Shown: positions 19,959 through 64,000 of the stretch, one piece after another
Layout of the letters: each line of letters starts with the position of its first letter
Numbering within the stretch: the stretch's first letter is position 1
DNA from: Chiloscyllium plagiosum
Taxonomy: Eukaryota
DNA: 64,000 nucleotides
Direction of reading: 5' to 3'
Assembly (NCBI RefSeq): GCF_004010195.1
Contig: NC_057719.1
Span: 11,848,002-11,912,001 of the forward strand
Program-made: the position numbers and the translations under genes
Notes under the pieces: model-generated
Told to the model about the DNA's origin: nothing
Seen by the model: only the letters and a program-made list of their open reading frames with translations
Database searches by the model: none

Positions 19959-20197
19959 GTGATAGTTTCGGTGATAGAAAGAAGTGAAACTATCATTCTA
20001 ACAGATGAAAGGCTTAACAGACAATCAATTTTTCAATGTATAATTTCAGTTACATCACACTGCAAATTTTTGCTATAAATTCTGTGTTACAATCGAGCCC
20101 TCCACAATCACCTGATGAAGGAGCATCGCTCCGAAAGCTAGTGTGCTTCCAATTAAACGTGTTGGACTATAACCCGGTGTTGTGATTTTTTTTTTAA
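19959..20197 (+). mobile_element. Penelope-like terminal repeat (family C) with a short inverted head
   Basis: gtgatagtttc / gaaactatcat inverted start and a hammerhead-like core. A reverse-complement homologue lies at 47363-47650. Confidence 0.7.
20109..20143 (+). ncRNA. Minimal hammerhead-ribozyme motif (family C)
   Basis: CAC-CTGATGA-A-GGAGC-ATC-GCTCC-GAAA-GC-TA-GTG: intact core, 5-bp stem II, palindromic AGCT stem III, CAC/GTG stem I. Confidence 0.7.
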
Positions 20198-20223
20198 ATA
20201 ATGAGAGGAATAGATAGAGTCAA

Positions 20224-20524
20224 TTAGATTACTTACAGTGTGGAAACAGGCCCTTCAGCCCAAAAGTCAACACTGACCCTCCGAAGAGCAACCCACCCAG
20301 ACCCATTCCCCTACACCTAACACTATGGTGTAATTTAGCATGGTCAATTCACCTGACCTGCACATTTTTGGACTGTGGAAGGAAACCGGAGCACCCGGAG
20401 GAAACCTACACAGACACAGGAAGAATGTGCAAACTCCACACAGACGGTTGCCCGAGGCAGGAATTGAACCTAGGTCTCTGGCACTGTGAGGCAGCAGTGC
20501 TAACCACTGTGCCACCATGCCGCC
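20224..20524 (-). mobile_element. HE1-like V-SINE
   Basis: Minus-strand GGCGGCATGGTGGCACAGTGGTTAGCACTGCTGCCTCAC A-box head, GGTTCAATTCC B-box and V-domain. Confidence 0.9.
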
Positions 20525-21275
20525 CAGAGACTTTTCCCCAGGGCAAGTACGAGAAGTCATAGTTTGAAGATATTAGGAGGAAGGTACAAAGGAGACGTCA
20601 AAGGTAGATTTTTTACACAGAGTTGTGAATGCATGGAATGCGTTACCAGCGGTGGTGGTAGAAGCAGAATCATTGGGGACATTTAAGCGACTGCTGGACA
20701 TGCACATGGATAGCAGTGAGTTGAGGGGTACATAGGTTGTTACTATATTTTACATTAGGATTAAATCTCGCACAACATCGTGGGCCAAAGGGCCTATTCT
20801 GTGCTGTACTTTTCTATGTTCTAAATTATTCTGAACTGGACATTGCTCAAATTAAATCAAACAATGAGAAAGTTCTCAAAACATTTGATAAATTATTGAG
20901 TAACCTTAGAGAAAAATCAAATGACCTGAAGGAGTTATTACAATCACATCGGGAAATATGTGGGAATAAGTTGGGAAGTACTAATCTGATTATGATGTAG
21001 ATATAGGAAATGCTGTTCCAATTAAATTATAAACTTAACCCTCTAAAGTTGGCACAAGTTCAAAAAGAGATTGAAGGCATACTCAAAGACAATATAATCG
21101 AAGTGAGTTGCAGTAAATGGATCTCACCTATAGTAATGGTGCCAAAACCAGATGATACCCAAAGATTATGTGTGGATTATCGCAAAGTCAATGCAGTTAT
21201 AAAATCTGATTCATATCCTATTTGGAAAACTGTATTGAGAATGTGGGACAAGTAACCTATTTTAGAGTTGGAGTT

Positions 21276-21610
21276 AGAACATAGAACATAGAAGAATACA
21301 GCGCAGTACAGGCCCTTTGGCCCTCGATGTTGAGCCGATCCAAGCCCACCTAACCTACACTAGCCCACTATCCTCCATATGCCTATCCAATGCCCGCTTA
21401 AATGCCAATAAAGAGGGAGAGTCCACCACTGCTACTGGCAGGGCATTCCATGAACTCACGACTCGCTGAGTAAAGAACCTACCCCTAACATCTGTCCTAT
21501 ACCTACCACCCCTTAATTTAAAGCTAAGCCCCCTCGTAATAGCTGACTCAATACGTGGAAAAAGGTTCTCACGGTCAACCATATCTAAACCCCTAATCAT
21601 CTTGTACACC
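21276..21610 (-). mobile_element. CR1 3' end inserted in the Gypsy RT
   Basis: YKMIRGLD...TRG-SFKLRGGR and an (agaacat)n tail. Confidence 0.88.
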
Positions 21611-21729
21611 TTGCTAGTATCCTCTGTTACTCAGAGGATACTAGCAGGCACATTTATCTGAAAGAGCAAAGGAAATGTCAGCTTTCATGATGCTGAATGA
21701 ACTGTACCAGTTTTAAGTCATGCCCTTTG

Positions 21730-22420
21730 AATTGATTTGAATTTAGTGTCACGTGTACTGAGGCACAGTGAAAAGCTTTGTGTTGCGAGTAATACAGGCA
21801 GATCACATAGTGAAATAGCATAGATAGTAAATAATAGGTAAACAGCGGCAAAAACAAAAACACAAGTACAGACAAATGCTAAGAGTTTGTGAGTCCATTC
21901 AGTATTCTATCAACAGTAGGGTGAAAATGATTTCAAAACAAGCTAGTGTGGGTGTTCAGGCTTCTGTACTTTCTCCCCAGTGATGGAGGTTATAGAAAAG
22001 CATTGCTAGGGTGGGATGGATCTTTGAGAATGCTGGCAACCTTTCCTTGACAGCGGGCCTGGTAAATGGATTCTATAGATGGGAGGTTGGCCTTTGTGAT
22101 TGTCCGGGCCAAGTTCACCACTCTCTGTAACTGCCTCCGATCTTGAATGCTACAGTTGCCATACCAGGTAGTGATACATCCAGACAGAATGCTCTCGATG
22201 GCGCACCTATAAATGTTGGCAAGGATATTCATCGTCATGCCAAATTTTCTCAGCTGCCTGAGGAAGAGGAGACATTGTTGGGCCTTTGTAACCAGTGCAT
22301 CCACAAGGAGAGTCCAAGAAAACTTGTTGTGGATGACCACTCCCAGGAGTATGACACTCTCCACTCGTACCACCTCTGTACTGTTAATGTGTGTGTTTGT
22401 CTGTGTGTGTGTGTGTGGGG
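21730..22420 (-). mobile_element. Rex1-like LINE 3' fragment, with a (TG)n tract at its 5' junction
   Basis: KAQQCL-FLRQLRKFG...YRCAIESILSGCITTWYGNCS...KDPSHP. Confidence 0.8.
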
Positions 22421-27240: not shown

Positions 27241-27468
27241 CTAGGTGAGAAGTGAGGACTGCAGATGCTGGAGATCAGAGTCAAGATTAGAGTGGTGCTG
27301 GAAAAGCACAGCAGGTCAGGCAGCATCCGAGGAGCGGGAAATTAGACGTTTTGGGCAGGAGCCCTTCATCAGGAATTCCTGATGAAGGGCTTTTGCCCGA
27401 AACGTCGATTTTCCTGTTCCTCGGATGCTGCCTGACCTGCAGTGCTTTTCCAGTACCACTCTAATCTT
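27241..27468. mobile_element. Fold-back Penelope-like mini-element (family A) with hammerhead cores on both strands
   Basis: About 95-bp inverted arms centred on catcaggaattcctgatg. TSD AACATCTTCTGA (27229-27240) and AACATCGTCTGA (27469-27480). Confidence 0.88.
27371..27415 (+). ncRNA. Minimal hammerhead-ribozyme motif (family A)
   Basis: CTGATGA(27379-85)-A-GGGC-TTTT-GCCC-GAAA-CG-TC, with palindromic ACGT stem III. Stem I (aggaattc/gattttcct) is imperfect. Confidence 0.68.
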
Positions 27469-27585
27469 AACATCGTCTGAATGTCCGACGATCTAAATTA
27501 CTTCAACGTGTGGGGGATTACAGGACAATTCCACTACAGTCTAATCCAACAGCGATAAAATGGTAGCAGAATGGGAGAGTCAAAA

Positions 27586-28505
27586 GTGTGGAAATGGAGA
27601 TGGAGAGGTTCAGGAATGGGAGGTAAGTGTCCGAGGTGGTCCAGGTGAATTTGAGGTCAGGGTGAAAGGTGTTGGTGAAGTTGATGAACTGTTCAACCTC
27701 CTTGTGGGAGCATGAAGTAGCTCTGATACAGTCATCGATGTAGCAGAGGAACAGGTGGAGGGTGGTGCCAGTGTAACTGTGGAAGATGGACTGTTCCACG
27801 TACCCGACAAAGAGGCAGGCATAGCTGGGACCCATGAGGGTACTCATGGCTACATTTTTGATTTGGAGGATGTGGGAGAATTGGAAGAAGTAGTTACGGG
27901 TGAGGACCAATTCAACCAGGCAGAAGAGGGTGTTGGTGGAAGGATACTGGTTGGAATGGCATGGGAGGAAGAAACTGAGGGCTTGAAGGCCTTCATCGTG
28001 GTGGACAGATGTGTACAGGGATTGGATGTCCATGGTGAAGATGAGGCATTGCGGAGCCAGGGAAACGAAAATCTTGGAGGAGGTGAACGGCGTGGGTGGT
28101 GTCCCAACAGTAGAAGAGGAGTTCCTGGACTAAGGGGGACAGGATGGTGTCAAGGTAGGCAGGGATGAATTCAGTGGGACAGGCGCAGGCTGAGACAATG
28201 GGTCAATCGGGGAAGTCAGGTTTGTGAATCTTTGGTTGGAGATAGAATCGGGTGGGGCGGGGTTCACTGACAATGAGGTTGGAGGTTGTGGATGGGAGAT
28301 GCCCAGAGGTGATGAGGTTGTGGATGGGCTAGGAGATGATGGTTGGTGATGGGAGGTGAGGTTGTGGTCAAAGGAACAGTAGGGGGAGGTGTCTGCGAGT
28401 TGGCGCCTGGCTTCTGCAGTGTAGAGGCCAGTGCGCCAAACTACTACTGCACCCCCCTTGGCTGCAGGTTTGATGGTGAGGTTGGGCTTGGAGCGGAGGG
28501 CACTC
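27586..28505 (-). mobile_element. Penelope-like element RT fragment
   Basis: IKPA-KGGAVVVW, TMDIQSLYTS, MGPSYACLFVGYVE, YIDDC and FHPDLKFTW are PLE RT motifs. Confidence 0.88.
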
Positions 28506-28800
28506 CCTCAATGTCATCTACTGTATCCATTGCACCCGATGTGGTCTCCTCTACATTGGGAAGACAGGATGCCTACTTGCAGATCATTTCAGAGAACATC
28601 TCTGGGACACCCACACCAACAAATACCACTGCCCTGTGGCTGAACACTTCAACTCCCCCTTCCACTCTGTCAAGGACATGCAGGTCCTGGGCCTCCTCCA
28701 CCGCCAAACCATTACCACCTGAAACCTGTAGGAAGAATGCCTCATATTCCGCCTTGGGATCCTGCAATCACACAGGATCAATGTGGATATCAACAGTTTT
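28506..28800 (+). mobile_element. Penelope-like GIY-YIG endonuclease fragment, inverted relative to the adjacent RT
   Basis: NVIYCIHCTRCGLLYIGKT...FREHL...VAEHFNSPFH...LIFRLG-LQ-HRINVD. Confidence 0.82.
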
Positions 28801-29539
28801 GGCATTTCCCCTCATTGAAGAGGGGAGCGGGACTAGGAGTTGAAGACAGAGAGAGACTTATTTAGGAGGCCACACAGAGGGATGGCATCTCTAAGAGACA
28901 GAGACAGGAGAAGTCATTCTAAAGTAACACATACTTCCAGATGAGTGTTATGGCTCCCCGGTGTTCAGTCTTTTAGCAGGCCCCAAATACACACATGCCT
29001 TTCTCACAGCTGCCATGGGCCTGCGGGTTAATTGCTGCTCACTTCAAAAGACTTGCAGTGGACATTTCAACAAATTCTTCAAACTGGTGATTGAGAAGCT
29101 GTCAGTAAAACCCAGCTGTGAGTGTTTACAGAGCATTCAGCAATTACTGAAATCAGTAGCTGGTCCTGCTTCATGGAGCTTATTTATTAAAGATTGTTAA
29201 TCATTCACTTCCTGGCCTTATGACTAACCCAGATGTGGAGAAATGCCAGAAGCATTACACACACACAACCTTGGTGACACACTTTTACATCACAAATCTA
29301 ATTGACAAAGTATCGACTACACAGGAAGTTTATCGAATGTACTTCTTCCAGGCAAAATCTGCAATGGCAATTCTTAGAGTAAGCCATGTTTTATAAAGAT
29401 TGATTTATGACACCACGGAAATCACCACTGAAGTTTTCTGATGCCAAGGTGGTGCTGTGGTTGTTTGTGGTGTAATCTCAGTGGATGCCTCTAAATCAGA
29501 GGGTTGTGTCATCCAGTCTCACTCAAGAGCTATCTTTTA

Positions 29540-32530: not shown

Positions 32531-32640
32531 AACGGACCAGCAGGAGGCTATAACTGTGATAGAATTAGGAAATTCAAGGGTGTAAAACCAAAAGCTTCAA
32601 AATGAGATGGAAGCTCTTAAGAAATTAAACAATCTGTGGA

Positions 32641-34103: not shown

Positions 34104-34699
34104 ATCAGTGTGAGGATGATTTGAACAGTTTAAGTTATAAAGTTCCCAGACTTAAGTAAGGCTTTAATAAGGTATAAAAACAGAAGTTGCTGGGAAAGCT
34201 CAGCAAGTGTGGTAGTGTCTCTGAAGAGAAATCAGAGTTAACATTTCTGGTCCGGTGACCCTTCTTCTGAACAGCCACTGGAAGAACAGTTAGGGTTAAT
34301 TCATTAAAGAAGCAGCTGAAATTTATCCTTTTGTAATTGGGTCAGCCCCATAACTGTTTCCTATTGTAATTGATGTTAGGATCACATAACTTAGTGTGAC
34401 TTATAAGAATGCTCGAGTTGAGTGATTTAAGGGAGTTTGGGAAGGAAGGAAAAGAGGTGCCCATTGCTTTTGCTTTTGTTACTTTTCTCAGTTTCCAGGA
34501 ATTGGATCTTGGTTTCCTACTGGAGCAGAAGCTAGTTATTTGCAAAGTGACTGTGGTTTATTCTGTTCCTAAGGTTCAAAATAGTACAGGGGGAACCTGA
34601 TTTGTGTCCTATTTAGTACTTATGATGCAATCTATTCAAGGGTGTAATTTTAATGTTTGACATACAAACATTCCATGTACTTCCAAATAGCTGCTTTAT

Positions 34700-35232: not shown

Positions 35233-35457
35233 GGTGGAGGTGGGTACTGTAGATGCTGGAGATTAGACTCAAGATTAGAATGGTGCTGGCAAAGCACAGC
35301 AGGTCAGATAGTATCTAAGGAGCAGGAAAATCGACGTTTTGGGCAAAAGCCCTTTAGTCGGGTTTCTTGATGAAGGGCTTTTGCCCGAAATGTCGATATA
35401 CCTGCTCCTCGGATGCTGCCTGACTTGCTGTGCTTTGCAAGTGCCACTCTAATCTTG
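35233..35457. mobile_element. Fold-back Penelope-like mini-element (family A)
   Basis: Inverted arms tcaagattagaatggtg...ccactctaatcttga. TSD-like ATTGCTCTCTGCAGTG (35217-35232) and ATTGTTTTCTGCAGTG (35458-35473). Confidence 0.82.
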
Positions 35458-35489
35458 ATTGTTTTCTGCAGTGATGAGTAAGTCAAGGT

Positions 35490-37408: not shown

Positions 37409-37409
37409 C

Positions 37410-40984: not shown

Positions 40985-41768
40985 ACGTCAGCGGAGCAGA
41001 GGTTGAGAGAGTTGACAGCGTCAAACTCCTAGGAATGGCAATAAGTGACAACCTGTCCTGGACATCCCATATAGATGTGATGGTCAAGAAGGCAAAATGA
41101 TGCCTCTTCTTCCTCATGCAGCTTAGGAAATTCAACATGTCCATAAGGACCCTCACCAACTTCTTCTACAGATGCACCATAGAAGGTATACTATCCAGGT
41201 GTGTAGTGGCCTGGTACGGCAACTGCTCTGCCCAGTAAGAAACTACAAAAGGTTGAATACACAGCCCAGACCATCATGGAAGCCAACCTACCATTCATGG
41301 ACTCCATTTGGAAAGAAGTGAGGACTGCAGATGCTGGGGATCAGAGCTTAAAAATGTGTTGCTGGAAAAGCGCAGCAGGTCAGGCAGCATCAAAGGAGAA
41401 GCAACACATTTTTAAGCATGGACTCCATTTGCACTTGTTGTGGCCATGGAAAGGTTGCCAAATTCATGAAAGACCTCTCCCACCCCAGTGATGCTCTCCT
41501 ACAACCTCTTCTGTCAGGCAGAAGATACAAAGGCTTGAATACATGCATACTTCCTTGCCATTGTTAGACTGATGAATGGTGTCTCTAACTTACAATAACG
41601 TTGATCTTGTTAATTCTGATCTTGCTTCGTGCGCCTCGTCTGTAGTGTAATTTGAATGCCTCACCCTATGATCTGTTATGTCCTTGCTTACTTTGATCTA
41701 CCTGTACTGCTTGCAAACAAAGCTTTTCACTGTCTTTGGGTATACGTGACCATAACAAATCAAATCAA
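40985..41768 (+). mobile_element. Rex1-like LINE 3' end, containing a Penelope-like mini-insertion (41311-41416)
   Basis: VERVDSVKLLG...LSWTSHID..VKKA...LRKF and a (caaat)n tail. The insert is flanked by a perfect CATGGACTCCATTTG (41296-41310 and 41417-41431). Confidence 0.8.
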
Positions 41769-41769
41769 G

Positions 41770-44700
41770 CTAGGGAAAGGTGGAAGTGTGGTTCTGTTTG
41801 TTAATCATGGCGTTAATACTACAGAGAGGATTGACCAAAGTTCAGGAAACCAGGATGTGAAAACAGTTTGAGTAAAGATAAATGATAAAGGTAAGAAGTC
41901 ATTTGTGGGAGAGTTGTACAGGTCTCCTAACAGTAATCACTTGGTAAGGTAGACACAATGGAAGAAATAATGGGAGCTTGTCAGAAAGGAATAGGAATAA
42001 TCATGGGATATTTTAATCTACATATAGCCTGGAAAAGTCATATGTATGAAATAGCCTAAAAGAAGAATTCATAGAATGTTTTCAGGATAGATTTTGACAA
42101 CAAAATGTTCAAACATCCAAGTCTGAAGCTGACCAAAGAGCAGGCCTGCTATTAGCAATGGTGTAAAGAATTATGGGGATAATGAGTAAAAGACATTGAA
42201 GTCTTTAAACAGCCACAGACCTGGTACTGTGTGACAAGAATGAATTATCTCAGAGCAAAGGGTAGATGCAACTGTTATATGACTGAATCTTACATTCTAT
42301 TTGAGGGAGAGAAGAAATAGATCTGAGTCTACTTTTGTTAAACTTTTATATGGACAATTATGAGGGCATGAAAACCAAAGTGGATTGGCAAACTAGGTTG
42401 AAGGATAAGTTAATGAAGATGCAGTGACAGACATTTAAGAGGATATTTTAGAATACACAGAATAAATATGTTCCAATGAGTAAGACATTTGTCATAGGGA
42501 AAATGTCTGAAGCTATTGTGAAAGATGTCATAGCAGGGTACTGAGATATGTTCAAGATAAACAGGCAGAGTCAACAAAGGGGAATCATGCTTAACCAATC
42601 TGTCGGAGGTTTATTTAGGGGAATCAAAGGATTCTGAGTAATACAAGATGGAGAATGGGAAAAAATGTGGATATAAGAGCTGCTCCTTTTTTTGAGGTAT
42701 TTTAGGTGTTGGAGCTTTTTTCCTTGAATTCCATGAGCAGTAATTACTGTTTTATAAGCTTTGGGGAAGAAAAAAGATCAAAGCAATGGCACTTTAAAAA
42801 GGAGGAAGAGAGACAAAGCAGAGACCACATGCTGAGTGAATCAAATGAGAAAGAAACCTACACTGCTATCTGACACAGCAGTGAATCTGCATAGCTACTG
42901 CCTTTGCTGTTTGAGTTCAAGTATTTCTAGACATCATAATGCATCAAAAAAAATTAACAAACAGTGACATTCACAGCTGATGTTGGAGGAACCTGTGTGG
43001 AACAGCTCACAACATGGGAGCAGCTAAGTGCATAGTTTTTAAGTGTAACTTAAGTGTACTCTAGAGTAGAGTGGGTTCTTTTTTGATTATATGTTTTATT
43101 GTGATCTCTTGATTCAGCCAGATGAAGTGGTGGAGGCTGGTATAATTACAACATTTAAAAGGCAGCTAGATGTGTATATGATCAGGAGGGGTTTAGAGGG
43201 ATATGGGCCAAGTTTTGGCAAATGGGAGTAGATTAATTTAGGATATCTGGTCGCCATAAACGAGTTTGACCTGAGGGCCGGTTTCTGTGCTGTACATCTC
43301 TATGACTCTAAGTAACATGCTGTAGATAACTTAAAACCACTGGATATATTGTACTTAGATTTCCAGAAGGTATCAAAGGTTATTGTGAAAATTAGAAATT
43401 TATGGTGGGGATGGTAGCAAATCGGCAGAAAGAGAAGATTGGGTGCCCAACAGGAAACTGTGGATTTTTCAGGTTGGCAAGATGTAATCAGTGGTGTATC
43501 ACAGGGTTCAGTGCTGTTTACAATACAAACATAGGAACAGGAGTAAGCCATTCAGTCAGCTCAATAGTTTGCTGCACCTGTATGCTAGCCTTAGTAACTC
43601 AATTTTTACAATTACTTTGAAGGTATGGACGGCCAAATTTGGCAATATCACAAAGGAAAGTAGGAAAGTAAAAACAAAATCAGAAATTGCTGGAAAAACT
43701 CAGCATGTCAAACAGCATCCGTGGGGAGAAAACAGAGTTAGCATTATGAGTCTGGCAACTCTTCATCAGAACAATTAACTTTGCTTTCTCCCCACAGAGG
43801 CAGCCAGAACTACTGCATTTCGCCAGCAATTTCTGTTCTTTGTTTCAGATCTCCTGCATCTGAAGTTCTCTATTTTATTCTACAGAAAGATAGGCTAAGT
43901 GAGTGGGATAAGATGTGGCAAATGGATCATAATATGGAAAAATGTGAAATTGTCCGTTTTGGCAGGAAAATCACATTATTTAAATAGTGAAATTATTTAA
44001 ACAAGGCTCTGAGGTAGAGAGATCTGGGTGTCCTTGTGCATGAATCACAAAAGGTTCATTCGTAGTTACTGCAAGTAATTAGGAGAACTAATCAAACGTT
44101 ATCATTTATTGTGAGGAGAATTGAATACAAAAGTTGGGAGGATGTGATTCAATTATATAGGACAATAGTCCAAGGTGAGGCGATAGGCTAGTGGTATTAT
44201 TGTTGAGACTAATAATCCAGAGACCTAGGTAATGTCCCAGTGACCCTGGTTCAAATCCTGACATAGCAAGTGGCAAAATTTGAATTCAGTAAAGGTCTAA
44301 TGATGACCATGAATCATTACTTATTGTTGGAAAATCACATCTGGTTCACTACTGTCTTTTAGGGAAGGAAATTGCCATCCTTACCTGGTCTGGCCTACCT
44401 GTGACCCCTCAGGAATGTGGTTAGCTCTTAACAATTAGGATGGGCAATAAATGGTGGCTCAGCCAGCAATGCCATCATCTGTGAATGAATAAAAAAGTGA
44501 GACTGCATCTGGAGCACTAGGAACAGTATTGGTCACTTTATTTAGGATAGAAAGTAAATGTGTTGAAAGCAGTTCAGATGGGTTTTACTAGACTAACATA
44601 ACATGGAGGCTGGGGGAGATGTCTTATGAGAAAAGGTTGATCAGGCTAGGCTCATTTCCTCTGAAGTTTAGAGTAAGAGGTAACTTGATTGAAACTTACA

Positions 44701-46673: not shown

Positions 46674-47362
46674 AGATATCTGTATGTGTTGTGCCAGGAT
46701 TTCGATAAGCATTAACCTGTCATGGACCCTATAGCTATCAGAGAGAAACATGGGTAAGCAGTCAGGTCTCATTTATCTTAACAGTTTACATCCCCAGGAA
46801 ATAGCTAAGATCCCAATAGAGTGTCTCCTATCTGAAGTTAATCTACAGAGGAGTGGGAAATAGTCAATACCACCATTTAAATAGATTAACTGGAAGGTGT
46901 TCAAACATTGAGTTTTGACAACCTTGAAATGATTTATGTGAGATATAAAAATACAATACATGCACAAGTATGTATACATGTATGTCTACAAATGTGTGCG
47001 CTTAGGTGCCTGTGTTCCCTGAGTTTGCTGATCTAGCAGAACTGAAGTTTCATTCTGGATCAGCTTGTTGAGTAACTTTAGAGTTTTGCAATTCGTGACC
47101 TACAATGAAGTCTTGCTTGTCCCTCCATACTGGTTCAATACTAGTACCATTGCATCCTATGTCCTGTGTTTCTGCATTGACATCTGGCATGATTTGGCTG
47201 CCCCCAGCCTCTGGCTTCTGTTGAAAATGTGCACAATTATTGGTGGGACAAATGAGCATTTTTGACTACTTAACTTGGGGACACTTCTTTAACTTGCTGT
47301 TCAAGTGATTTGTTTTTACAGGACAGCCACGCACACACTGAGGCTGCCAGGGCAAAGTAAGT

Positions 47363-47650
47363 TAAAAATCACACAACACCAGGTTATAGTCAAACAGGTT
47401 TATGTGGAAGCACTAGGTTTCGAGGCGCTGCCTGTTCATCAGGAGCAGGACCAGAAGACACAATTTATAGCAAAAGGGTTACAGTGTCACGGAGTTGTAA
47501 TGGTATGTTAAACAAACAGATTAAGTCTTGCATCTTTTAGGATGGGATATGCTGGTTTGGGCTCTTTAATATGTAAATTTGAAAACTCCTTTCAAGTTAC
47601 ATTCTTAAGGTGGCTTCAGTTTATCTAACAATAGGTGTTATATCTAAGTA
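47363..47650 (-). mobile_element. Penelope-like terminal repeat (family C), decayed hammerhead
   Basis: aaaaatcacacaacaccaggttatagtc...ggaagcactag-tttcg...ttcatcagg is the reverse complement of 20100-20190. Confidence 0.7.
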
Positions 47651-48348: not shown

Positions 48349-48588
<240 letters not shown>

Positions 48589-49087
48589 TAAGAGGTGAAG
48601 ACTTGCACCAAATCAGCACTTAAAAAAGAGGAAGTGCCATCTGATGAAGCCGGAGCTGCCAGTCAATTTGAGACCACCATCTCTCCAGTAATCCCACTGA
48701 TGATGGCACCACATAAGTGACATGAGGAATTATTCAGCAGTGAATTGTGTTGGTATTGTTTGGGGGTCCCACTGGATGCCAAACTCATCAGTAAAGGTGC
48801 AGCCAAAAATTGAGAAACTGTGGTGAGGGAGACCCCTGGAAGTTGTGGTCCCTGTTTTCATTCAAGGGACTCCTGCCTTGTCCCTCATCGTGTGCAGTAT
48901 AACCTATCGGGCTGGTAGTTGTGTGGGGGCATCTCCTATAGGCTAGTTGAGGCTTTAAAGTGAGCATTAATGGCCCAATTAAGAACCACAATTGATGGCA
49001 TCACCACCCTAATGTCTTATCTATTGTTGGTAAAATTCCCATGGGAACAAGGATGATGGGTAGATACGTTGCCTGATGGATTTTGAG

Positions 49088-49297
49088 GGAGAAAGTGAGG
49101 ACCGCAGATGCTGGAGATCAGAGTCAAGAGTGTGGCGATAGAAAAGCACAGCAGATCAGGCAGCATCAAAGGAGCAGGAGAATCGACATTTCAACAGTGT
49201 ATTCCTAATTAAGGGCTTATGCCCGAAACATCAATTCTCCTGCTCTTTTGATGATGCCTGACTGACTGTGCTTTTCCAGCACCACACACTCAACTAC
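49088..49297. mobile_element. Fold-back Penelope-like mini-element (family A)
   Basis: gagaaagtgaggaccgcagatgctgg...gaaaagcacagc and the inverted gcttttccagcaccacacactc. aagggcttatgcccgaaacatc lies in the right arm. Confidence 0.78.
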
Positions 49298-50039
49298 TGA
49301 ATTTTACATACTGCTTCTACCTCTGAACCCAAAAAGGAAACAAAATCCATCCCCTGAGGATTGACAGTATTTGTAATGTTGACCAGACCTGGTTAGATTC
49401 TCTTTGAAGGACAATGTGAATCAGTTGGGATCTTGCAACAACACTGCTTTCTCTGTACTCCTCGTATCTCATGTCAGCCCACTATTTAGAGCAGATTTAT
49501 TCAGATTCCCATTTTGCCATTGGCGAATTTTCAACTCAACTTTTAAGCTGTATTCCTTTGCACCTGATCGTCCCTCGTTCATTGCAGATAATCACAAGTA
49601 TAAGATTACAGTTCTCTGTTGAGCACCTGGTGCAGAGTCCTCGAGTGCAAATAGCCACACAGCAATCACAAATTCAGTGATTCCAAACTAAATTGTTGAC
49701 ATAAACTACTAACAGTCTAAGTCTGGACATTTAACTCCAGAACACACTGAAAGATTAGGAATATGCATGACATTCAGAGTGCAGGATGCTGGATTAAAAC
49801 TGCTTGGAATTTGTATGGGGCTTATTTTATTCTCTCACGCGCATCAAGGTTGACCAGCTTTTGTTGCCTGTCCATAGTTGTTCGTCCACGGAACAAAATA
49901 AAATCCAGTAAAAATAATTTTAAGAATTTTATTTTGTATTCAAATCTGGATTCACTCCACTTGTTTTGAGTACAAAGTACTAACGTGTTCATTTGGTGGG
50001 CCACACCATTCTGACCCTGGCTGTATTTTTTTCCTGAAG

Positions 50040-50102
50040 GGATGGAAGATGATCTGAATGCAGCAACTGAAAAAGCAAATGGAACAGAGTTGTTTGACTC
50101 AG
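50040..50102 (+). CDS. ism2: Isthmin linker exon (GMEDDLNAATEKANGTELFDS)
   Basis: Acceptor ttttttcctgaag, donor gtaagt at 50103. 63 bp, phase 1-1, keeps frame between the TSR and AMOP exons. Resembles the isthmin G(I/T)ED...N-T-LF linker. Confidence 0.85.
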
Positions 50103-50895
50103 GTAAGTATACTACACCAAGAACCATTAATGTGAGAACATGTCAGCTGACTTACCTGGATATGAAAAGAATCAATAGAGAAAACAGCCCATTAAGCCCC
50201 TCAAGTTTGTTCCACTATTCAATGACATTTCAGCTGCTCTGTCTGACATGCTAAGTTTAATCAACAGCCATGAGTTCAAAATTGACAAAAGGATTCAGGA
50301 AATCAGATTTGATCGTTTATTTCACATATACACATGGACGGCTAGTATTATCACCGTGAAATGTAAATCTCTCATTTCCAGATTTATCTAATATTTATAG
50401 AAAACATTACAACATTCAAATTACAATCTCCACACTTCTCTGTTCAGGTGTCTGCTATTACCTGTTGTTTTCCACACTTTTTACAGACATTGTCTGTATT
50501 TTTCCCAAGACCGGTTCTATCTGCTAATAGTACAGCTAATAGTACAAAAGACTGCCTTTGTACATCTGTCGTTCTCATTTACATTTACAATATGACTTAA
50601 AATTTAACCCTTAACTAACTGAAACTGATTCAACTTTTTCACCCTTCAATGCAATTCATCTGACTCATCTAGAATTGTGCAGAGTCAGGATAGGAGACAG
50701 GACCTTCAGTCCCTCAAATTTTGTTTCACCATTCAATGAGATCTTGGCTGATCTGTCTAACATACTGAAGTTGATAACAGCCACAAGTTCATTGGTGACA
50801 TGGGAAGTCAATCTCTTGACACCCCTGGCAGGATAGCTATTAGACTTTGCATTATCTCCATTCCTGGTTTAATTAACAAATGGTGTGATACTGGA

Positions 50896-50996
50896 AACAA
50901 AAACAGAAATTGCTGGAAAAACTCAGCAGGTCTAACAGCATCTATGCAGAGAAATCAGAGTTAACATTTCAGGTCCAGTGACCCTTCTTAAGAACA
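50896..50996 (-). mobile_element. Penelope-like mini-insertion (family B)
   Basis: Perfect 14-bp TSD GGTGTGATACTGGA (50882-50895 and 50997-51010). Confidence 0.82.
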
Positions 50997-51675: not shown

Positions 51676-51985
51676 AGGAAAAGCTGAAGAAACTCAGCAC
51701 GTCTGGCAGTATCTGTGGAGAGAGAAAACCAAGGTTAACATTTCAAGTCTGTGGTATGACTTCTTCAGAACTGAAAAATGTTGGAACTTAGGTTTTTTTA
51801 AAAATATTTTCCACAGAATCCAAGGAGGAGCAACAGGGCAGATGGTATGGAGACTCAATGCAAAAAGTTGAAGTCATTATCAGTGAAGAAAAGAAAGAGT
51901 AAAAAGAGTGTAAATTAAGGTGTGTAAAGGAGAGACTTAGTATTTGCTAATAAGTGCAAAGTAAACAAAACATACACTACAAATT

Positions 51986-53009: not shown

Positions 53010-54018
<1,009 letters not shown>

Positions 54019-54950: not shown

Positions 54951-55108
54951 AACAAAAATAGAAGTTGCTGGAAAAATTCAACAGATCTGGCAACATCCGT
55001 GAAGAAAAATCAGAGTTAACGTTTTGGGTCCTGTGCCAGACCTACTGAGCTTTTCCAGCAACTTCTGTTTTTATTTCTGATTTATAGCATCAACAAATCT
55101 TTCGGTTT
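54951..55108. mobile_element. Fold-back Penelope-like mini-element (family B) inside a decayed Deu-SINE tail
   Basis: agaagttgctggaaaa / ttttccagcaacttct inverted arms. TSD TGTTCTGAGATTGT (54937-54950) and TGTTCTGAAATTGT (55109-55122). Confidence 0.8.
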
Positions 55109-56747
55109 TGTTCTGAAATTGTGGTCGGCAGTACAGAAATGTGATTCTTCTGATGTTGCTATTGCATAGGTTGACTCATTCTGTATCTGTGACAATTCAG
55201 TCAAGTTTAGTTTAAAATCAGAACTCACTCTTTACACTTTATAAATTTTCGCATGAGTGGCTGAATCTACAGAGCTAATGGAGGCATTTGGAGATTACTT
55301 TAACATACGCTGCATACCGTTGTCTTCAGTCTTGCTTCACCGTGTAATCCAATACTGCCGCAAAAGAGCCAAAAGTAAACAGTGAATTTGTTTGAACTCC
55401 CCTTCTGTTAATGTCTGCTTTAAGAAAAACAAACCTCTCTAAACAAGGGTTCACAGCTTCAGTGTGAGAAAACTGGTAGCTGAACGAGAATTCACAGTCT
55501 CCTGCTGGAATCCTGTTTTTACCTGGGACTGATAGCTATGGAATCCCCACCACTATTGGCTTCCTTTTCCTTCCTGTATACATAAGCTTCTACATTCCAG
55601 GCTTTAGGAAGACAGCAGTTCATATTTTTTCTGCTTTGACGGTGTCCTGCTCTGTGGGTGTCATCATGTCTCCTGCACTTTTCAATCAATTGAAAGAGAC
55701 ACAGGCTGCCTTGTAAAGAGAAAAGATCAAAACATTTTATTTTAAATGAAGCGAGGATACAAAAGGGAATCGAATGACATACGAGTCCAGAATATCTCTC
55801 TCAAAACTCTGGCGATGCATTAATGCGAATGGCTCAACGAATTAGAAGTTTGAGGTGTGACACTGAAATGCAGGGGGCTTTCAGGATCTCTGTTTCTCTC
55901 TACTGTCTTCAGAGTTGCGAAATGAATAAGACCAAATGTCACCCTATCCAACTTCCTACCAGCTAGGTAATTGGAGTATACACTAACAATGGATGCTTTG
56001 TTTGCCATTGACTGTAAACCATATGGGACATCATGAGATTGTGATAGGTGCAATATAAATGGAATTTCTTTTTATTCCTTTATCTTTAACAGTGGCCGTC
56101 TGTATAAATTAGCCCATAACAGACCTTAAACAAAATGGGGCAAACTCCAATGATGGAGCGCTAAGGGAATCCTTGATCCAAATTAATCTGTTCTTCGTTG
56201 GAACCACCATGTCATATTGCAAATTTCTCACCATTCCATAAATTATTTTCTGAAATTTATCTAAACTTCTTTCACCGTGGCTCAAGGGTGTCTGTTCCAT
56301 GTATTGAAGCACTCACCCTCTCTACAAAATTCAATCACGGTATATCAATAGGATTTGTGGAGAAAACCATCTCTTTGAAATGTTAGAGAATTTTTTTTAC
56401 CCCGCCAGTTTAATTTAAAAAAAAATACAGTATCAAGCACTGAGTTTCCTAAAATCCTCCAAAACATAAAAGGTCTTTCCAATCAAACATAGTAAAATGA
56501 CACATGACAAATGGACACCATTTAGCCCCCATGGTGCTTGTGTTGTGTTGCAGACAGAACTATCCACTTCGTCACAATTGCACTCTTGCTCTGTAACTCG
56601 GCAAATGTTTTTGATTTCATTTGGAAATCACTATTATAAATCCCAATTGGATGGCTACAGTTCAGAGAAGCAAATGGCTAGCTTCATTGATTAGAATCAA
56701 TTCATTTTTACAGCACACCCAAGGTCACCTGACCATTCACAGCTTTG

Positions 56748-57097
56748 AAAATCTGTTGCTGGAACAACGCAGCAGGTCAGGCAGCATCCAGGGAACAGGA
56801 GAATCGACATTTCGGGCATAAGCCCTTCTTCAGGAATGAGGAGAGTGTGTCCAGCAGGCTAAGATAAAAGGTAGGGAGGAGGGACTTGGGGGAGGGGCGT
56901 TGGAAATGCGATAGGTGGAGGGAGGTCAAGGTGAGGGTGATAGGTCAGAGTAGGGTGGGGGCGGAGAAGTCAGGAAGAAGATTGCAGGTTAGGAAGGCGG
57001 TGCTGAGTTCAAGGGATTTGACGGAGACAAGGTGGCGGGAGGGGAAATGAGGAAACTGGTGAAATCCGAGTTCATCCCTTGTGGTTGCAGGGTTCCT
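56748..57097 (-). mobile_element. Penelope-like terminal repeat (family A, longer copy)
   Basis: Near-identical to 63636-64000, with AGCTTTG on both flanks. Confidence 0.8.
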
Positions 57098-57641
57098 AGC
57101 TTTGTCAACCTCCCCATAATCTGCAGATTAGACCTCTGCAAGGATGTATGACTAATCGGATGGAATGGTTACGTCCAGAAAATTAATTCTTTCCTGATGT
57201 GCATAGCAATGAAGTTAGTCATTTCTTACAAAGAGACAATTATAAATACACCATTTTGAAGTCAATGCATGATGATCAGCATGTGTTCTTTTTATACCTG
57301 AATATGGAGGAAGACTGAATCAGACTGTGATTCCAGAATAGATGCAAACCTGACCTCTGAAGGCAAGAGGTTGTACAGTCCAACTCAAGTTGAGAACCGC
57401 AGTCAGTGTATAATTACAGCTGATACTTCAGTGCAGGGTGTATTGTCAGAAGTGCACCTTTCATGTGTTGCAGCAACCAAAGTTCCACCTGGCTTTTCAT
57501 CTGCACAAAAAACATTCCACAGGAGAACTCTGCTGATGTCATAGTCATTATGTCATTATTCCATTTCTCTTGGTAAATGAGCTGGTTTTATATTTTGCTT
57601 TAATGAAACTGGGCCTAACTGTAGAAAATTTCCATCCTGTT

Positions 57642-58741
57642 GTGGTTCTGTTCGCCGAGCTGGGAATTTGTGTTGCAGACGTTTCATCCCCTGTCTAGGT
57701 GACATCCTCAGTGCTTTGGAGCCTCCTGTGAAGCACTTCTGTGATCTTTCCTCCAGCATTTGTAGTGGTTTTAATGTGCCGCTTCTGGTTGTCAGTTCCA
57801 GCTGTCCGTTGCAGTGGCCAGTATATTGGGTCCAGGTCGATGTGCTTATTGATTGAATCTGTGGATGAGTGCCATGCCTCTAGGAATGCCCTGGCTGTTC
57901 TCTGTTTGGCTTGTCCTATAATAGTAGTGAATTGAATCCTTCCACCATGTGTCAGATGCAAACCACCAGTCAACAACCCACAAGCTAGGGACAGAGCCAG
58001 AGAGAACGGATTCAGGATGATCCAGGTAATGATTACAGACGCTCACAACAGACTTCACAAATACAGACAAGAAATTACGTGCCAAAATAGTTAATTTCAA
58101 AAACCACCAATCATGAATGGACCCAGACCATAGAACAGGCTGTCACCATAGGGCAGAATAGGACCACACACCACAAAAAAAGGCACTAAAAGAAAAAATG
58201 GCCAAACTAACACACAATAGAGAGGACACCACAACACACACCTGGGTTAGAAACCTCTCCCACATACACGGAAAGAACAATACTGGCCAAGAGATTCAAC
58301 TACAATCACAGGGACAACAAGACAGCAGACTTCCTAGCAGCACTAGAATGCACACTTAGGAACAATGGGCTGACAGAAGAGACACAGCAAACAGTGAGAC
58401 AAAGTATCGTACCTCTGATAACAAGGAAACACTATTATTATAACAAGCCAAACAGAGAACAGCCAGGGAATTCCTAGAGGCATAGCACTCGTTCACAGAT
58501 TCAATCAATAAGCACATTGACCTGGACCCAATATACCGACCACTGCAACGGACAACTGGAACTGACAACCGGAAGCGGCAGATTCAAACCACTACAAATG
58601 CCGGAGGAAAGATCACAGGAAGCTCCCAAGCACTGAGGATGTCACCTAGACGGGACGAAATGTCTGCAACACAAATTCCCAGCTCGGCGAACAGAACCAC
58701 AACATCGAGCACCCGAGCTACAAATCTTCTCTCAAACTTTG
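57642..58741 (+). mobile_element. Internally deleted Penelope-like element (family D) with an inverted 5' pseudo-LTR
   Basis: 57642-57930 is the reverse complement of 58430-58703, encoding the GIY-YIG C-terminus AREFLEA-HS--DSINKHIDLDPIY. TSD AATTTCCATCCTGTT at 57627-57641 and 58742-58756. Confidence 0.88.
57675..57714 (-). ncRNA. Minimal hammerhead-ribozyme motif (family D); a mutated mirror copy lies at 58630-58667 (+)
   Basis: Minus strand GCA-CTGAGGA-T-GTC-ACCTAGACAGGG-GAT-GAAA-CG-TC-TGC: intact core, GCA/TGC stem I, ACGT palindrome. Confidence 0.66.
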
Positions 58742-59069
58742 AATTTCCATCCTGTTTAGTATTTTTATTCAAGCGGCAGAGGATAAAGGATATTAGGGAG
58801 CTTTTGACTAATAAAAAAAAAATATCTTATTGGCATAGTGGGCTGAGCATTCTGTGTTTAACTCAGGAGATTTGTGATCCGATAGCCTCTGTGATTCTTG
58901 ATATATGCTGACTTAGTCAAATCTTTGATACTTCTGTCAACATGGTCAATAGAGCTGCAACTTATACCTATGATTGTCAATATGTATCATCTGAACTCCT
59001 CAATTAGATGTCTGCCCATAACTCAATCTCAGGTATCAATTATTCAATAAATTATCTATTTGAACCTTA

Positions 59070-59311: not shown

Positions 59312-61146
59312 ACATTGTCTGAATTTCTCAATTTCTCCAGTCTGTAACCCACTACAAGATATCCAGATCATCTAAACCTCTTAATAGGTATTTGAATTGC
59401 TCAATTAGATTCCAGTCTGCATTTCAGTCCCAAGTATCAATTTTTCCATATATAAACCATTTGAACTACTCAATTCCAAACTGTAACTCCCTCTCAGATA
59501 TCCACTATTCAATATATAAATTATCAGACATTCCTCACTTAGATTCTCACTCTTTGGTACTTGTCATCTTATCCCCTTGTGCTGCTTCTTAGTTATTTCT
59601 AATATATTGAAGTATCAATGAGTTATATAAATTGAACTTGGGAACCAGAGAACAGTTGTTGTGATAGTTTTGACTCTGTGATCTTTCTGTGAATGAATGA
59701 TCATTTTTGTCCTTGTGCAAATTACATTGCCAAAGTCACTGTTTCAATTGGCTACATCCAATATTGCATTCAAAACTCATCACACCAGTCTCAGAACCAC
59801 CTCAAGGTCCAACCACCTGAGAACAATACTTTAATTACTATTAACATTGCCATAATGATATGGATGTATCGGACATTGGGCCTTTCCTCCATCAAATTCT
59901 GATTTATAGGCTTTGTGGGTTTAGTTTGGTAGTGGGAACAGAATCCTCATAATTTTTAAACCAACAACAAAATCAGGCAACATTTCCAATTATGTAGTGG
60001 ACTACAATCTGATCTGTCCCAATAAAGTCTGAAGTCACATTAAAGGAATACAATCAGAATACATTGAGAGCAGTTTTGAATTTGCTATCATCCTCCATTT
60101 TCAATTTTTGTGTATAGCCCCAAGACTGAAATTCATAGACCAAGGGAGAGAATTAGGCTTTTAGTTAAAGGTGTATTAAGTAGAATTTTAATTATTTTAA
60201 GTAGACATGAGCCAAAGAAATTAAAGGGATTCAATTTATAAAAAGTTCAGCTCCATTTCATACAGAATGTAACTTTCATTCTTCCATGCAATACTGAATT
60301 GTGGTCTTGCATGCCACCACGGTTTTATTTTGAAGGTTGTTCTCTGACCTCTAATAGTTTTGCACTTTTGCAACTCACTGTTGTAATCTACATGTCTGGG
60401 AGGAGGGAAAGGGAGTGTGCAGAATCTTTGTAAACACTGTTGGTCTTTCTTTATAGGAATATTTCCCACACAGAGTCTCAAGCAATATGTAGTATGAAAT
60501 TGGCAAACACTTCTATTCTTTGATGCAAATGCTAGTACTTTAGTGCTCTTTGATCCATTCCCACATTCAGTTAACATAATATCTGAAGGGAAATGGTTGG
60601 TTTCCCTCCATTTACAACTGTCGAAAGCAACAAGAGGCTGGCTCATGTACGGATTTCTCTCAAGGTTACCCTTTGTCTCCAAGACTATGGAACCTGATCA
60701 CAGGGCCTACAAGTGAATATAATTGGTATAGATTTATCTCTGAGCTTTCTCTGCTCAATGGAGACCCCCTGATGAACAGGTGAGCAAGCCTACAAATACA
60801 GTGATGTTCCTAGTGTGTGCAGCACTGGGACATGAAGCCAAGATGACATCAGCTGTGATCCCAAGTCAGCACCTGTCCCTGGTCCTGGGCAGGGTGACAG
60901 TAAAAGACAGAAGAGCTCAAGAGAGAGCAAATCAGGCAGTCACTTGGCCACAAGCCATGATCCCCCACTAGCTAATGAGCAGGTAAAGTTCGGATCAGGT
61001 TCTGCTGGGATACTCCCCATCCTCCCTCAATGGTCAGACTTCGGATCTCACATGGGGAATATACCACAGCAAAGTAAAGGAGGGTACAAATGAAGAGGGT
61101 AGAATCAAAGTCTTCAGTATAAATACCAGTATTTTCAAATTGCCAT

Positions 61147-61272
61147 CAGTTCTGATGAAGAGTCACCAGACTCAAAATGTTAATTCTGCTTTCTTAACAG
61201 ATGTAGCCAGACATACTAAGATTTGCCAGAAGTTTGTGTTTTAGATTTCTAGTATCTACAGTTCTTTATTTT
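61147..61272 (+). mobile_element. Penelope-like terminal repeat (family B) with a CpG-decayed hammerhead (61148-61185)
   Basis: AGTT-CTGATGA-A-GAGTC-ACCA-GACTC-AAAATGTT-AATT. CGAAACG has become CAAAATG, consistent with two CpG transitions. Confidence 0.7.
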
Positions 61273-62277
61273 GTTAATTAAATAATTTTGGCTCTGTGTG
61301 ACATCTTGGAGCATCGCTTGAGAATTTTATTGCTCCAGAACTGAGGCACTTTACTTTGGATTTTTCATTTTTATTCTGTTATTTGTAAATTGTGTCCCAC
61401 TGTTCTCAAGAGAATTAGTTGCAAATAAAATGTTGCAGGTAGTTTCAATGTTTAAAGAATTCTTGTGCATAATGTAAGGACTTAATAACTTGAGTTTCTT
61501 GTACTGTACAGTATTTATTGTGTGTTTAATACTTAACAAATGAGAGTGAAATATTTTACACAATTTAAGATGCACTACTGTGAAAAACCTTGTTTCTAAG
61601 GGACTTCTGTTCTACATGAAAGGGAAATGTAATGTATCATCAATTTTGTCTTTCAATAAAAAGATCAAAAGCAAATAGGTTGCCACTTCTTTTCAACTTT
61701 TTCCCTTAGCTTATGTTTGGTTTCATTACAATTTGCACTGGATGAAGCATTAACTACTTGAGAATCACAAAACAAACCTGCCATTTTCCACCTCTGTTTA
61801 GATTCAATGCTTGGACAAGGAAGTTTTGGACAAGAGAAGGAAACAAGGACTTCTAGTCCACTGTGGGCAAAGGCAAGAGTAATGCATTGGCATCGAGGTG
61901 GAGCAGGGTTTACCCACTCCAAAAAAACTGGGAAGTGCAAAAAGCATCAACACTGTCTCGCATCGATATAAGCTTATACAAAAACACATAAGAGCACATG
62001 TCCACCAAGTGTGGATGTTAAAATAAAAGCAGTGTTGTCACATCAAGGTTTCTGAATCCATACTATGCTGGGGAGAAAAAAAAACTACTTGTTTTATTGG
62101 ATGCCAGAAAGTAATCCATTTAGGAAAAATATAAATTCTATGGTGCTAAAGACATTGATGAACTGATATACACTACCCCTACAATTGATACAGCTCAAAT
62201 GCAATAAGGCACCTCAAGGAAGAAAATAGTTTTGCATTTGTATAGCATTTTCACATCCACAGGAACTCCCAAAACAT

Positions 62278-62625
62278 GGAGGTAGTGGTGTGCTGCTGAT
62301 GACACTGGCCTTGTAACCCAGAGCCCCAGCCTAATGGTCAGGGTTGAAATGACGGATTCAAATCTCATCATGACAAATTGTTAAAATCTGAATTCAATAA
62401 AAATCTGAAATAAAAAAAGCCACCCTAATGGTGACCATGTGACCACTGTCAATTGTTGTAAAAATTAATCAACTTTTTCCTAATTTCAATACTTTTTTTT
62501 AAGCATCAAGGAGTATGGGGAGAAAGTAAAAATATGGCATTGAGATAGAGGAACAATTTTAAATGTCAAATGGCAGAGCAAGCTTGAAGGACCAAATGGC
62601 CTAATCCTGCTTCTAGCTTCTATAA
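62278..62625 (+). mobile_element. tRNA-headed SINE fragment followed by a CR1 tail
   Basis: tgaattcaataaaaatctg...gtgaccatg as in 44173-44495, and ccaaatggcctaatcctgcttcta. Confidence 0.55.
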
Positions 62626-62639
62626 CCAATAAAAGAATT

Positions 62640-63595
62640 TAGAGGAGTTACTTGCTTAAGGTGGAAAAATGCTACATCTGCTTTTTCACAGTCGCAAACT
62701 TGAACAAGTCAAATGACTGGATAAATAAGTTTTTCCTCAACGATATTGTTAGAGATAAATTTTAGTCTGGATCCTGGGGTGGAAAAAGGAGGGCTCCCCT
62801 TCAATAGATCCATCTGCAAAGGCAGACCGGGCCCTAGCAGTTCATTATATTTCATCATAACTGAGAAGGCAAGGTTCCTCTGACAGTGCAGCACTCCTGT
62901 GGTAATACACTGGGAACATGAACTAAAATCAGTTGTTCCACATGCAAAAGATCCCACAGACCACCAATCCATTCACTTTCACTTCTCACCATAATAACAA
63001 TGTCAGGATTAATGGAAAAAAATTGATGAGGCATCAATAAGGTGATGGCTGGTTCCAAGCTGATGGAGTCTCATGTCAGGCAACTTTGGATTTTCAACAC
63101 TGGGCCACAAATTATCTGTACACTGGAGCAAATAACATGAATCTTGCCAAGAACCAACTATTGCAATGCCACTCGCATTAAGGACAACTCGCACTGCAGA
63201 CACAGGAGCCAAAAACTGGATCTGCAACATCCACTGCAACTGGAGGACCACCAGCTCGGTAAAATATGCTCTTTGATCGACCTGAAGCTTGGTGATCTTC
63301 TAGGGTAAACCATGAGTGAGTGTTGGAAATTTGCACATTCCAAGGTCCAGGACCATGTTTTGAGGGATGCACAAAAGCTTGGAGTAACCACTGCCAAGGC
63401 TGCATGGGGAAAGACCACTATCAGAGGCCTTTCTGCTATAATGTACCAAAGGAGTATAGTAGCCTTTGTTGCATGCATTGAAATGGACATAGCTTCTGGA
63501 CATAAACGGTTTCACTTTGCAATTGGATGGAGGCACTGAAGATGCACTGTTCAAATTAGAAATGTGACACAAGTACTTTTAAAATAAAATAATTT
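62640..63595 (+). mobile_element. L1/Tx1-clade LINE ORF2 remnant with 3' end
   Basis: C-terminal ECWKFAHSKVQDHVLRDAQKLG..AKAAWGKTT followed by AATAAA near 63583. Internal parts are heavily deleted. Confidence 0.6.
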
Positions 63596-63635
63596 ACTCT
63601 CACATATACTTTTATATGACAAATACAGTGGGCAG

Positions 63636-64000
63636 CGCTGAAAATGTGTTACTGGAAAAGCACAGCAGGTCAGGCAGCATCCAAGGAACAGGAGAATCGA
63701 CGTTTCGGGCATAAGCCCTTCTTCAGGAATGAGGAAAGTGTGTCCAGCAGGCTAAGATAAAAGGTAGGGAGGAGGGACTTGGGGAAGGTGGAGGGAGGTC
63801 AAGGTGAGGGCGATAGGCCGGAGTGGGGTGGGGGCGGAGAGGTCAGGAAGAAGATTGCAGGTTAGGAAGGCGGTGCTGTGTTCGAGGGATTTGACTGAGA
63901 GAAGGTGGGGGGAGGGGAAATGAGGAAACTGGAGAAATGAGGAAATTGGAGAAATTGGAGTTCATCCCTTGTGGTTAGAGGGTTCCCAGGCGGAAGATGA
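63636..64000 (-). mobile_element. Penelope-like element end (family A), running out of the window, with an intact hammerhead core at about 63695-63730
   Basis: Minus strand CTGAAGA-A-GGGC-TTAT-GCCC-GAAA-CG-TC. Confidence 0.82.

Follow-up and report, generated by a model that had tools for sequence, protein, structure and literature searches.

What are the short hammerhead-like motifs that recur in the genome of the shark Chiloscyllium plagiosum, which elements spread them, and do the dispersed copies still serve as ribozymes? The question is raised by a stretch of 64,000 nucleotides (assembly GCF_004010195.1, contig NC_057719.1, positions 11,848,002 to 11,912,001), referred to here as the window, for which an earlier note had proposed that four unrelated-looking repeat families (A to D) share a minimal hammerhead-ribozyme core. 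Judged from their sequence, the cited motifs are real minimal type-I hammerhead-ribozyme sequences of four families of Penelope-like elements (PLEs). It is very probable that they belong to the terminal repeats (pseudo-long terminal repeats, pLTRs) of these elements, and that most copies are 5′-truncated stubs, likely made from uncut RNA, which then decayed.

Hammerhead motifs in the window

Positions within the motif follow the standard hammerhead numbering. The six stretches cited for the window contain the bases that had been read in them, and C27406 and A20140, after which the cuts had been predicted, occupy position 17 (H17), so that the proposed cut geometry is correct. A descriptor of the minimal type-I class gave 7 matches in the window, compared to 1.06 on average in 200 Markov simulations, all of which stayed below 7; with a palindromic stem III and a stem II of at least 3 bp there were 4 matches, compared to 0.025 in the simulations. 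Alignment to subfamily majority sequences revealed 27 element pieces, 18 of which span the whole core. The core CUGANGA...GAAA...UH, comprising 11 bases, is complete in 10 of these 18 copies and in all 8 subfamily majorities, and 4 of the 10 also retain the stem III palindrome (20112+, 27379+, 57711- and 63726-). The earlier count of about 15 copies was thus slightly low, although the high density stands. The family D motif at 58630+ (C3 58633) has an intact core as claimed but has lost the palindrome, now ATGT, and the family B motif at 61152+ is decayed as described, with G12A and a mutated palindrome.

An Rfam scan of the window, using models that expect full stems, found no hammerhead match at E ≤ 10. 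Rfam matches on the window palindromes were rejected as chance, microRNA-like hits only. No tRNA genes were found in the window, nor were tandem arrays of the hammerhead unit, a trait of non-LTR retrozymes; the copies there are single or inverted.

Stem covariation among subfamilies

Across eight subfamily majorities (A1, A2, A3, B, C, D, E, and F), the core is fixed while the stems change and remain paired, which extends what had been proposed for the four families. The first pairs of stem I are C-G, U-A, or A-U, and stem II appears as GGGC, GGGUC, GGAGC, GUC.CCU, or GUUACC. The stem III palindrome switches, as had been recognized, between ACGT (A, B, D, E, and F) and AGCT (C). Helix II is paired with G10.1-C11.1 throughout, except for family E, which has G.U at 10.1-11.1, and helix I has 3-4 pairs in A3, B, C, D, E, and F. 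The weakness of stem I ascribed to family A applies to A1 and A2 (C-G, U-A, U.U, A-U) and not to A3, which has a perfect 4 bp. The extra base after A9, likewise pointed out before, is present in 51 of 55 descriptor matches in an unbiased 575-kb genome sample (see below). Position 17 is U in family B, and cleavage after U17 is weak. Two stem II assignments have to be revised: the commonest form in family B is GGGTC/GACCC instead of GAGTC/GACTC, and the family D stem is longer than GTC/GAC, consisting of 3 bp, an A.G mismatch, and 3 bp.

A chance resemblance of ordinary repeats to the hammerhead, with which the missing Rfam match, the short stems, and the weak monomer folds might agree, is hardly credible in the light of these comparisons; eight subfamilies with distant proteins (27-45% identity) keep the 11 core bases, the extra base, and the palindromic stem III, and their stems differ yet pair. 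Nor can the families be called unrelated, because 32-34 nt that follow the ribozyme in A and B are 88-94% identical between the two. In the majority sequences, this shared segment is part of a predicted hairpin enclosing the first 3′ end, family C has its own, different predicted 3′ hairpin, and in D, E, and F an AC-rich loop is closed by a common 3′ stem, in which a G-C pair is exchanged for A-U.

Further variants were also observed. E and F are two more Poseidon-type families with stem I CCA/TGG and TCA/TGA and a 7-bp stem II; none is in the window (loci L155:8686-8772, L249, L299, L273, and L156:7652). A-like variants with a compensated stem II (AGGT/ACCT, GAGC/GCTC) occur at L141:1091 (-), L301:3259, and L265:815. 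Immediately 3′ of its hammerhead, family B has a sequence resembling a splice acceptor (CTGAT, pyrimidines, CAG), at 61175-61205 of the window and in B copies, and the A1 and A2 tails finish in pyrimidine runs near an AG.

Penelope-like elements carrying the motifs

The link to PLEs that had been put forward holds for each of the four families, in which open reading frames (ORFs) for a reverse transcriptase (RT) and a GIY-YIG-type endonuclease (EN) lie upstream of the hammerhead. Pfam names RVT_1 only (P0001-P0003), and the GIY-YIG motif was recognized by eye. A same-strand hammerhead lies downstream of the RT/GIY-YIG ORF in 11 of 20 family A loci picked by RT match, of which L148 alone has no assembly gap (736 aa open), and downstream of the RT in 15 of 20 family D loci, with direct tandems 2,502-2,503 nt apart at L169 and L172. 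The family C hammerhead is found 385-785 nt past the end of its own endonuclease in 11 of 30 loci, and the RT/EN remains of family B itself lie upstream in 13 of 30. The proteins of A are 27% identical to those of D, ~26-38% to those of C, and ~30-52% to those of B. A CX2-5CxxC linker between RT and EN is present in C (L197), present with one Cys changed in A (P0001), and absent in D (P0002); its presence indicates Neptune and its absence Poseidon elements (PMC8557442). A, B, and C are therefore probably Neptune-type and D is probably Poseidon-type, labels suggested by the linker in A, C, and D.

The copies show the hallmarks of PLEs, namely two 3′ ends, inverted partners, and 14-15-bp target-site duplications. 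In 103 of 103 young A2 copies the 3′ ends fall at +82..96 and +119..126, ~35 nt apart. The family D ORF begins where stem II begins, and the predicted cut is 28 nt past the AUG; at L172 the ATG within the hammerhead shares its frame with the RT, and the D ORF stops at a TAG inside the next hammerhead. Since the start codon of D lies inside the hammerhead, a cut would remove the AUG.

The direct-tandem D copy at L172:3805-6330 has a unit of 2,503 nt and an ORF span of 2,514 nt, 11 nt longer, with an internal stop. A family A frame can cross the hammerhead and 3′ hairpin stop-free (L148:3549-3900 (-), L056, and P0001), and the open frame of A1 apparently reaches the ORF start of the next unit.

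Abundance in the genome

Exact patterns, not all of which demand stem I or H17, gave 118,600 matches genome-wide (A, 93,870; C, 18,482; D, 5,674; B, 574), and reversed-pattern controls gave 0. The unbiased sample, sixty 10-kb stretches of contigs C1-C37 chosen blind to their content (575,198 non-N bases), contained 55 descriptor matches, compared to 2.65 in 20 simulations; 32 have the palindrome, and 28 of these also have at least 2 stem I pairs (~50 per Mb). Extrapolation from this sample leads to ~170,000-320,000 motifs in the 3.56-Gb genome. The dense multi-family ribozyme load proposed from the window is therefore borne out by the 118,600 exact matches in four families, and it consists mostly of dead-on-arrival stubs of 90-130 nt. 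Approximately 4,000 motifs in coelacanth and 9,000 in Xenopus have been reported with another descriptor (PMC4209133), and the shark counts are not like for like with these because the descriptors differ. Two A2 stubs (L398 and L399), which lie 3.7 kb from each other and have almost the same flanks, may represent a local duplication or an assembly repeat.

Where the copies begin

Start positions were counted relative to the core base C3, so that a cut product would start at +28. A cleavage footprint in the 5′ ends was considered and rejected, as only 1 of the 103 A2 copies starts at this position; 30 of them start at -3, -4, or -5. Among unbiased A copies, 58 of 100 start at -9..+14 and 0 at +15..+32. 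Genome-wide counts of family A fall from 83,810 (core) to 50,404 (-4) and 23,127 (-9), a drop that exceeds a few-percent-per-base divergence and is therefore not explained by it. The base preceding the -4 start in family A genome-wide is G in 5,264 cases, A in 1,744, and T in 1,351, making G 3-4 times commoner, and the control one base further in shows no G excess (G, 841; T, 1,541). The base preceding the -8 start in family C is G in 838 cases and T in 151. An extra G from cap copying has been described for L1 (PMC4038843). The G excess before the start in A and C argues for run-off at a capped RNA start on an uncut template, and in RNA reads 56837, the -4 base, is a site of loose ends and inverted joints. 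Stubs of families A and C thus probably begin at the capped first base of the element RNA and not at the cut site.

Several observations weigh against this reading. The 103 A2 copies were chosen by a 3′ anchor in the first 3 Mb of contig C1, and the G, A, T, and control patterns differ in their first filter letter. Examination of 40 G-start contexts showed 21 inverted junctions, where the G may come from the partner, and 5 cases with the G inside the duplication; 2 contexts have a single clean untemplated G between duplication and element, 3 have 2-4 additional bases, the last of them a G, and no duplication was recognized in 9. The 5′ pile-up of family C is broader than that of A, and family D has none, with 14 of 15 copies extending at least 13 nt upstream. 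The predicted hairpins 3′ of the ribozyme do not rise above shuffles in three of four single copies, the one above them being 20100-20190.

Given the same PLE origin, the pile-up could instead arise from stalling or template switching of the RT at the folded hammerhead rather than from the RNA start. Inverted partners in 47 of the 103 A2 copies, with many joints inside the motif, are compatible with stalling, as are the palindrome-like hairpin of stem II, which offers microhomology, and the lack of a pile-up in D. However, a stall is expected on the 3′ side of the structure, where none of the unbiased copies starts (+15..+32), and the G excess is specific to -4 and recurs at -8 in C. The start base in A and B also stands in an initiator-like context, the consensus of which is YYANWYY. 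Stalling is therefore considered an unlikely source of the pile-up.

It is still less likely that the stubs form a separate non-autonomous family, similar to retrozymes or short interspersed elements (SINEs), copied from short master RNAs. Most copies do consist of just the hammerhead and the 3′ hairpin, with defined ends and target-site duplications, but their sequence is that of the pLTR of the long elements, with a gradual transition between the two (11 of the 103 A2 copies extend at least 98 nt upstream), the unit forms no tandem arrays in the window, and a stub starting at -4 would be without the upstream half of the initiator.

Activity of the dispersed copies

The CpG spanning C11.1 and G12 can decay into a lethal or a tolerated change, and genome-wide the lethal G12A (2,813) is as common as the tolerated C11.1U (2,635), as neutral decay predicts, which argues against maintenance of activity in the dispersed copies. 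At CpG positions, 19% of aligned bases differ. Two comparisons point in the other direction: non-CpG core positions differ less than their neighbours (1 of 360 vs 26 of 1,116, p = 0.01) in a test confounded by base composition and subfamily variants, and non-CpG core positions differ less than flanks (17 of 680 vs 165 of 2,108) in another that is biased by alignment trimming near 5′ ends. The lower core divergence is tentatively ascribed to selection in source elements together with base composition, and weak later constraint may also act. At the level of sequence, the dispersed copies look functionless.

The 27379 copy and its inverted partner make up a perfect hairpin with 96-bp arms (-178 kcal/mol), which, as modelled, would bury the hammerhead. 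RNA data came from one fragmented single-cell library (~2% of the run; 1,830 and 765 reads mapped). The reads cover motifs and show no pile-up of begins or ends, in a fragmented library that is unable to show cleavage ends. Family D reads are ~10:1 sense near the ribozyme, which was not taken to prove that the elements are transcribed, since an A-rich sense strand primed with oligo-dT can yield such a bias.

A working host-side load, in which dispersed copies cut introns or other transcripts, might be suspected from the ~50 copies per Mb (28 in 575 kb) that keep the core, the palindrome, and at least 2 stem I pairs, from the motif sequences in RNA reads, and from the lower divergence of core positions. 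In addition, two intact copies, 20112+ and 27379+, are sense-intronic in isthmin-2, as the exon positions of this gene place both in its 40-kb intron. On the other hand, these two copies have unlike palindromes (AGCT and ACGT), 27379 is locked in the hairpin mentioned above, and the lethal change is no rarer than the tolerated one. Moreover, a minimal PLE monomer was uncleaved and dimers were weakly cleaved (PMC4209133), and 8 of 9 Xenopus retrozyme dimers were uncleaved (bioRxiv 2026.07.22.740005). Such a host-side role appears very unlikely.

Proposed mechanism

Truncation on uncut RNA could proceed as follows. An initiator-like promoter would direct capped transcripts to begin where helix I begins, with the A at -4 in family A and -8 in C. 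Priming by the element RT would take place at the 3′ hairpin, 90-130 nt downstream, as in the case of the anole Poseidon element (PMC11167929). Having passed through the uncut ribozyme, the RT would copy the cap as one more base before running off; often it would jump, yielding an inverted partner. The fold would be under selection only in source elements, where cleavage is predicted to be slow and to need a dimer, formed through the ACGT or AGCT palindrome, or the protein of the element. In D, a cut would take away the AUG lying within the hammerhead.

More tentatively, and with somewhat less than even confidence, we suggest that the capped Neptune-type transcript begins at helix I and that the ribozyme is a 5′-terminal switch, the cut of which would remove a capped leader of ~30 nt (in D, the AUG) and turn off translation, rather than releasing a unit-length RNA. 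The stubs would then preserve, to the single base, a fossil record of where transcription started. If this is true, a few hundred thousand stubs in the genome go back to priming on uncut RNA at a hairpin ~100 nt away from the cap. A capped start at helix I on an uncut template is a precise prediction. The role of PLE hammerheads has been called unclear (PMC8557442).

Relation to known elements

The minimal type-I class, the extra base, the palindrome, and covariation among multiple families have already been described (PMC4209133), and the value of the shark motifs therefore lies in a test system, not in a new ribozyme; the genome provides source-type sequences that are still young, from four families differing in their stems, and very large copy statistics. 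The shark motifs resemble the minimal hammerheads of metazoan PLEs (Cervera and De la Pena 2014, PMC4209133) in the CUGANGA/GAAA/UH core, the extra base between 9 and 10.1, the G10.1-C11.1 pair, the palindromic stem III, and the short helix I, as well as in the presence of several covarying families per genome, mostly as dispersed singles and opposite-strand pairs. They differ in the host, no shark being named in the cited parts of that paper or in two supplement files, in the far higher count (118,600, by different descriptors), in the helix II of 4-5 bp in shark A-C, and in the 5′ pile-up at helix I, which is not described in those parts.

Shark family D is similar to the Anolis Poseidon element PAc (Frangieh et al. 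2024, PMC11167929), in which the ORF also starts at the stem II start, the cut falls 26 nt past the AUG (28 nt in D), two 3′ ends lie in or after an AC-rich stem-loop, and pLTR-ORF-pLTR tandems occur. The AC-rich stem-loop of D, E, and F matches the RT-initiation stem-loop of the same work, according to which the PAc hammerhead depends on protein and the template is mainly uncut RNA. Shark A, B, and C differ from PAc in having a 3′ UTR (untranslated region) before the hammerhead and another hairpin sequence, and the cap-type G and 5′ pile-up are found in shark A and C, not in D.

Compared to the EN-containing PLEs Penelope/Poseidon and Neptune (PMC8557442, PMC3846280, PMC2377424), the shark elements share 5′ truncation, partial tandems, an inverted 5′ copy, an optional 30-40-nt tail, a target-site duplication, and a putative internal pLTR initiator promoter. 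In the Drosophila virilis PLE of the same papers, transcription starts 46 nt ahead of an intron, the end of which meets helix I, whereas in the shark the RNA start itself appears to do so. The non-LTR retrozymes (bioRxiv 2026.07.22.740005; PMC7229834) are alike in being non-coding, pLTR-derived, and equipped with a type-I hammerhead, but they are tandem arrays depleted from introns, unlike the dispersed single or inverted stubs of the shark, many of which are intronic. One chondrichthyan was sampled in the retrozyme survey (bioRxiv 2026.07.22.740005). The literature searched contained no report of shark hammerheads, though Lunse et al. 2016 and the retrozyme-survey supplements may list some, and none linking a PLE cap or start site to helix I.

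Features of the window

Table 1. Element pieces and host exons in the window, with hammerhead status
Feature	Position	Strand	Details
Family C pLTR stub	20014..20190	+	C3 20112; core and AGCT palindrome intact; predicted cut after A20140; sense inside large isthmin-2 intron
Head-to-head family A1 pair, 96-bp-arm palindrome	27257..27471	.	+ copy C3 27379 intact; predicted cut after C27406
Minus partner of A1 pair 27257..27471	C3 27372	-	Carries G12A
Family A PLE, broken RT fragment	27587..28501	-	58% aa and 80% nt identity to gapless copy L148
Inverted GIY-YIG endonuclease fragment, same family A element as 27587..28501	28504..28813	+	66% aa identity to P0001
Family D (Poseidon-type) complete insertion	57627..58756	.	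15-bp target-site duplication
Parts of D insertion 57627..58756	57638-57929 (-); 57929-58429 (+); 58428-58743 (+)		Inverted pLTR; ORF 5′ part; pLTR
Family D hammerhead	57675..57714	-	C3 57711; core and ACGT palindrome intact; H17 57678
Family D hammerhead	58630..58667	+	C3 58633; core intact; palindrome mutated (ATGT); 2-nt loop deletion
Old family B stub	61144..61261	+	Starts at -8; C3 61152; G12A; palindrome mutated
Family A2 pLTR end	63633..63788	-	C3 63726; core and palindrome intact; H17 63699
Family A2 pLTR end	56737..56932	-	C3 56833; core intact; palindrome mutated (ATGT); 56837 = -4 start position of other copies
Inverted A2 pair, 15-bp target-site duplication	10384..10596	.	- copy starts at C3 10487, palindrome mutated; + copy starts past core
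Adjoining A1 stub and B stub	4130..4357	-	A1 C3 4211, starts at -3; B C3 4349, GAAA deleted
A2 stub without C3-U4	17025..17079	+	
B stub, U4A	34176..34272	-	
Inverted A1 pair, both decayed or truncated	35246..35471	.	
A2 stub without hammerhead	41316..41397	-	
Inverted B pair, decayed	43665..43869	.	
Old C copy	47359..47487	-	C3 47442; core bases present; stems decayed
Inverted A pair, decayed	49088..49285	.	
B stub, 14-bp target-site duplication, G5U	50894..50995	-	
B stub	51683..51774	-	Core bases present; stem II decayed
Short A1 piece without C3-U4	53292..53338	-	
Inverted B pair without full core	54951..55109	.	
Host isthmin-2 coding exons	~7901-8218, 48439-48618, 50039-50173, 53491-54015	+	

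Isthmin-2 is the only host gene found in the window. The last exon matches a Chiloscyllium punctatum protein with 99% identity, the next best matches being from other cartilaginous fishes, and tblastn found no exons 5′ of residue 128 in the window. A broken LTR-retroelement remnant lies at 16585-18507, with an integrase zinc-binding domain (PF17921) at 18175-18507. Much of the remaining window is made up of SINE-like repeats and many RT fragments of CR1-like long interspersed elements, as at 994-1977, 11776-12414, 32586-34100, 35610-37230, 38983-40650, and 45361-46670.

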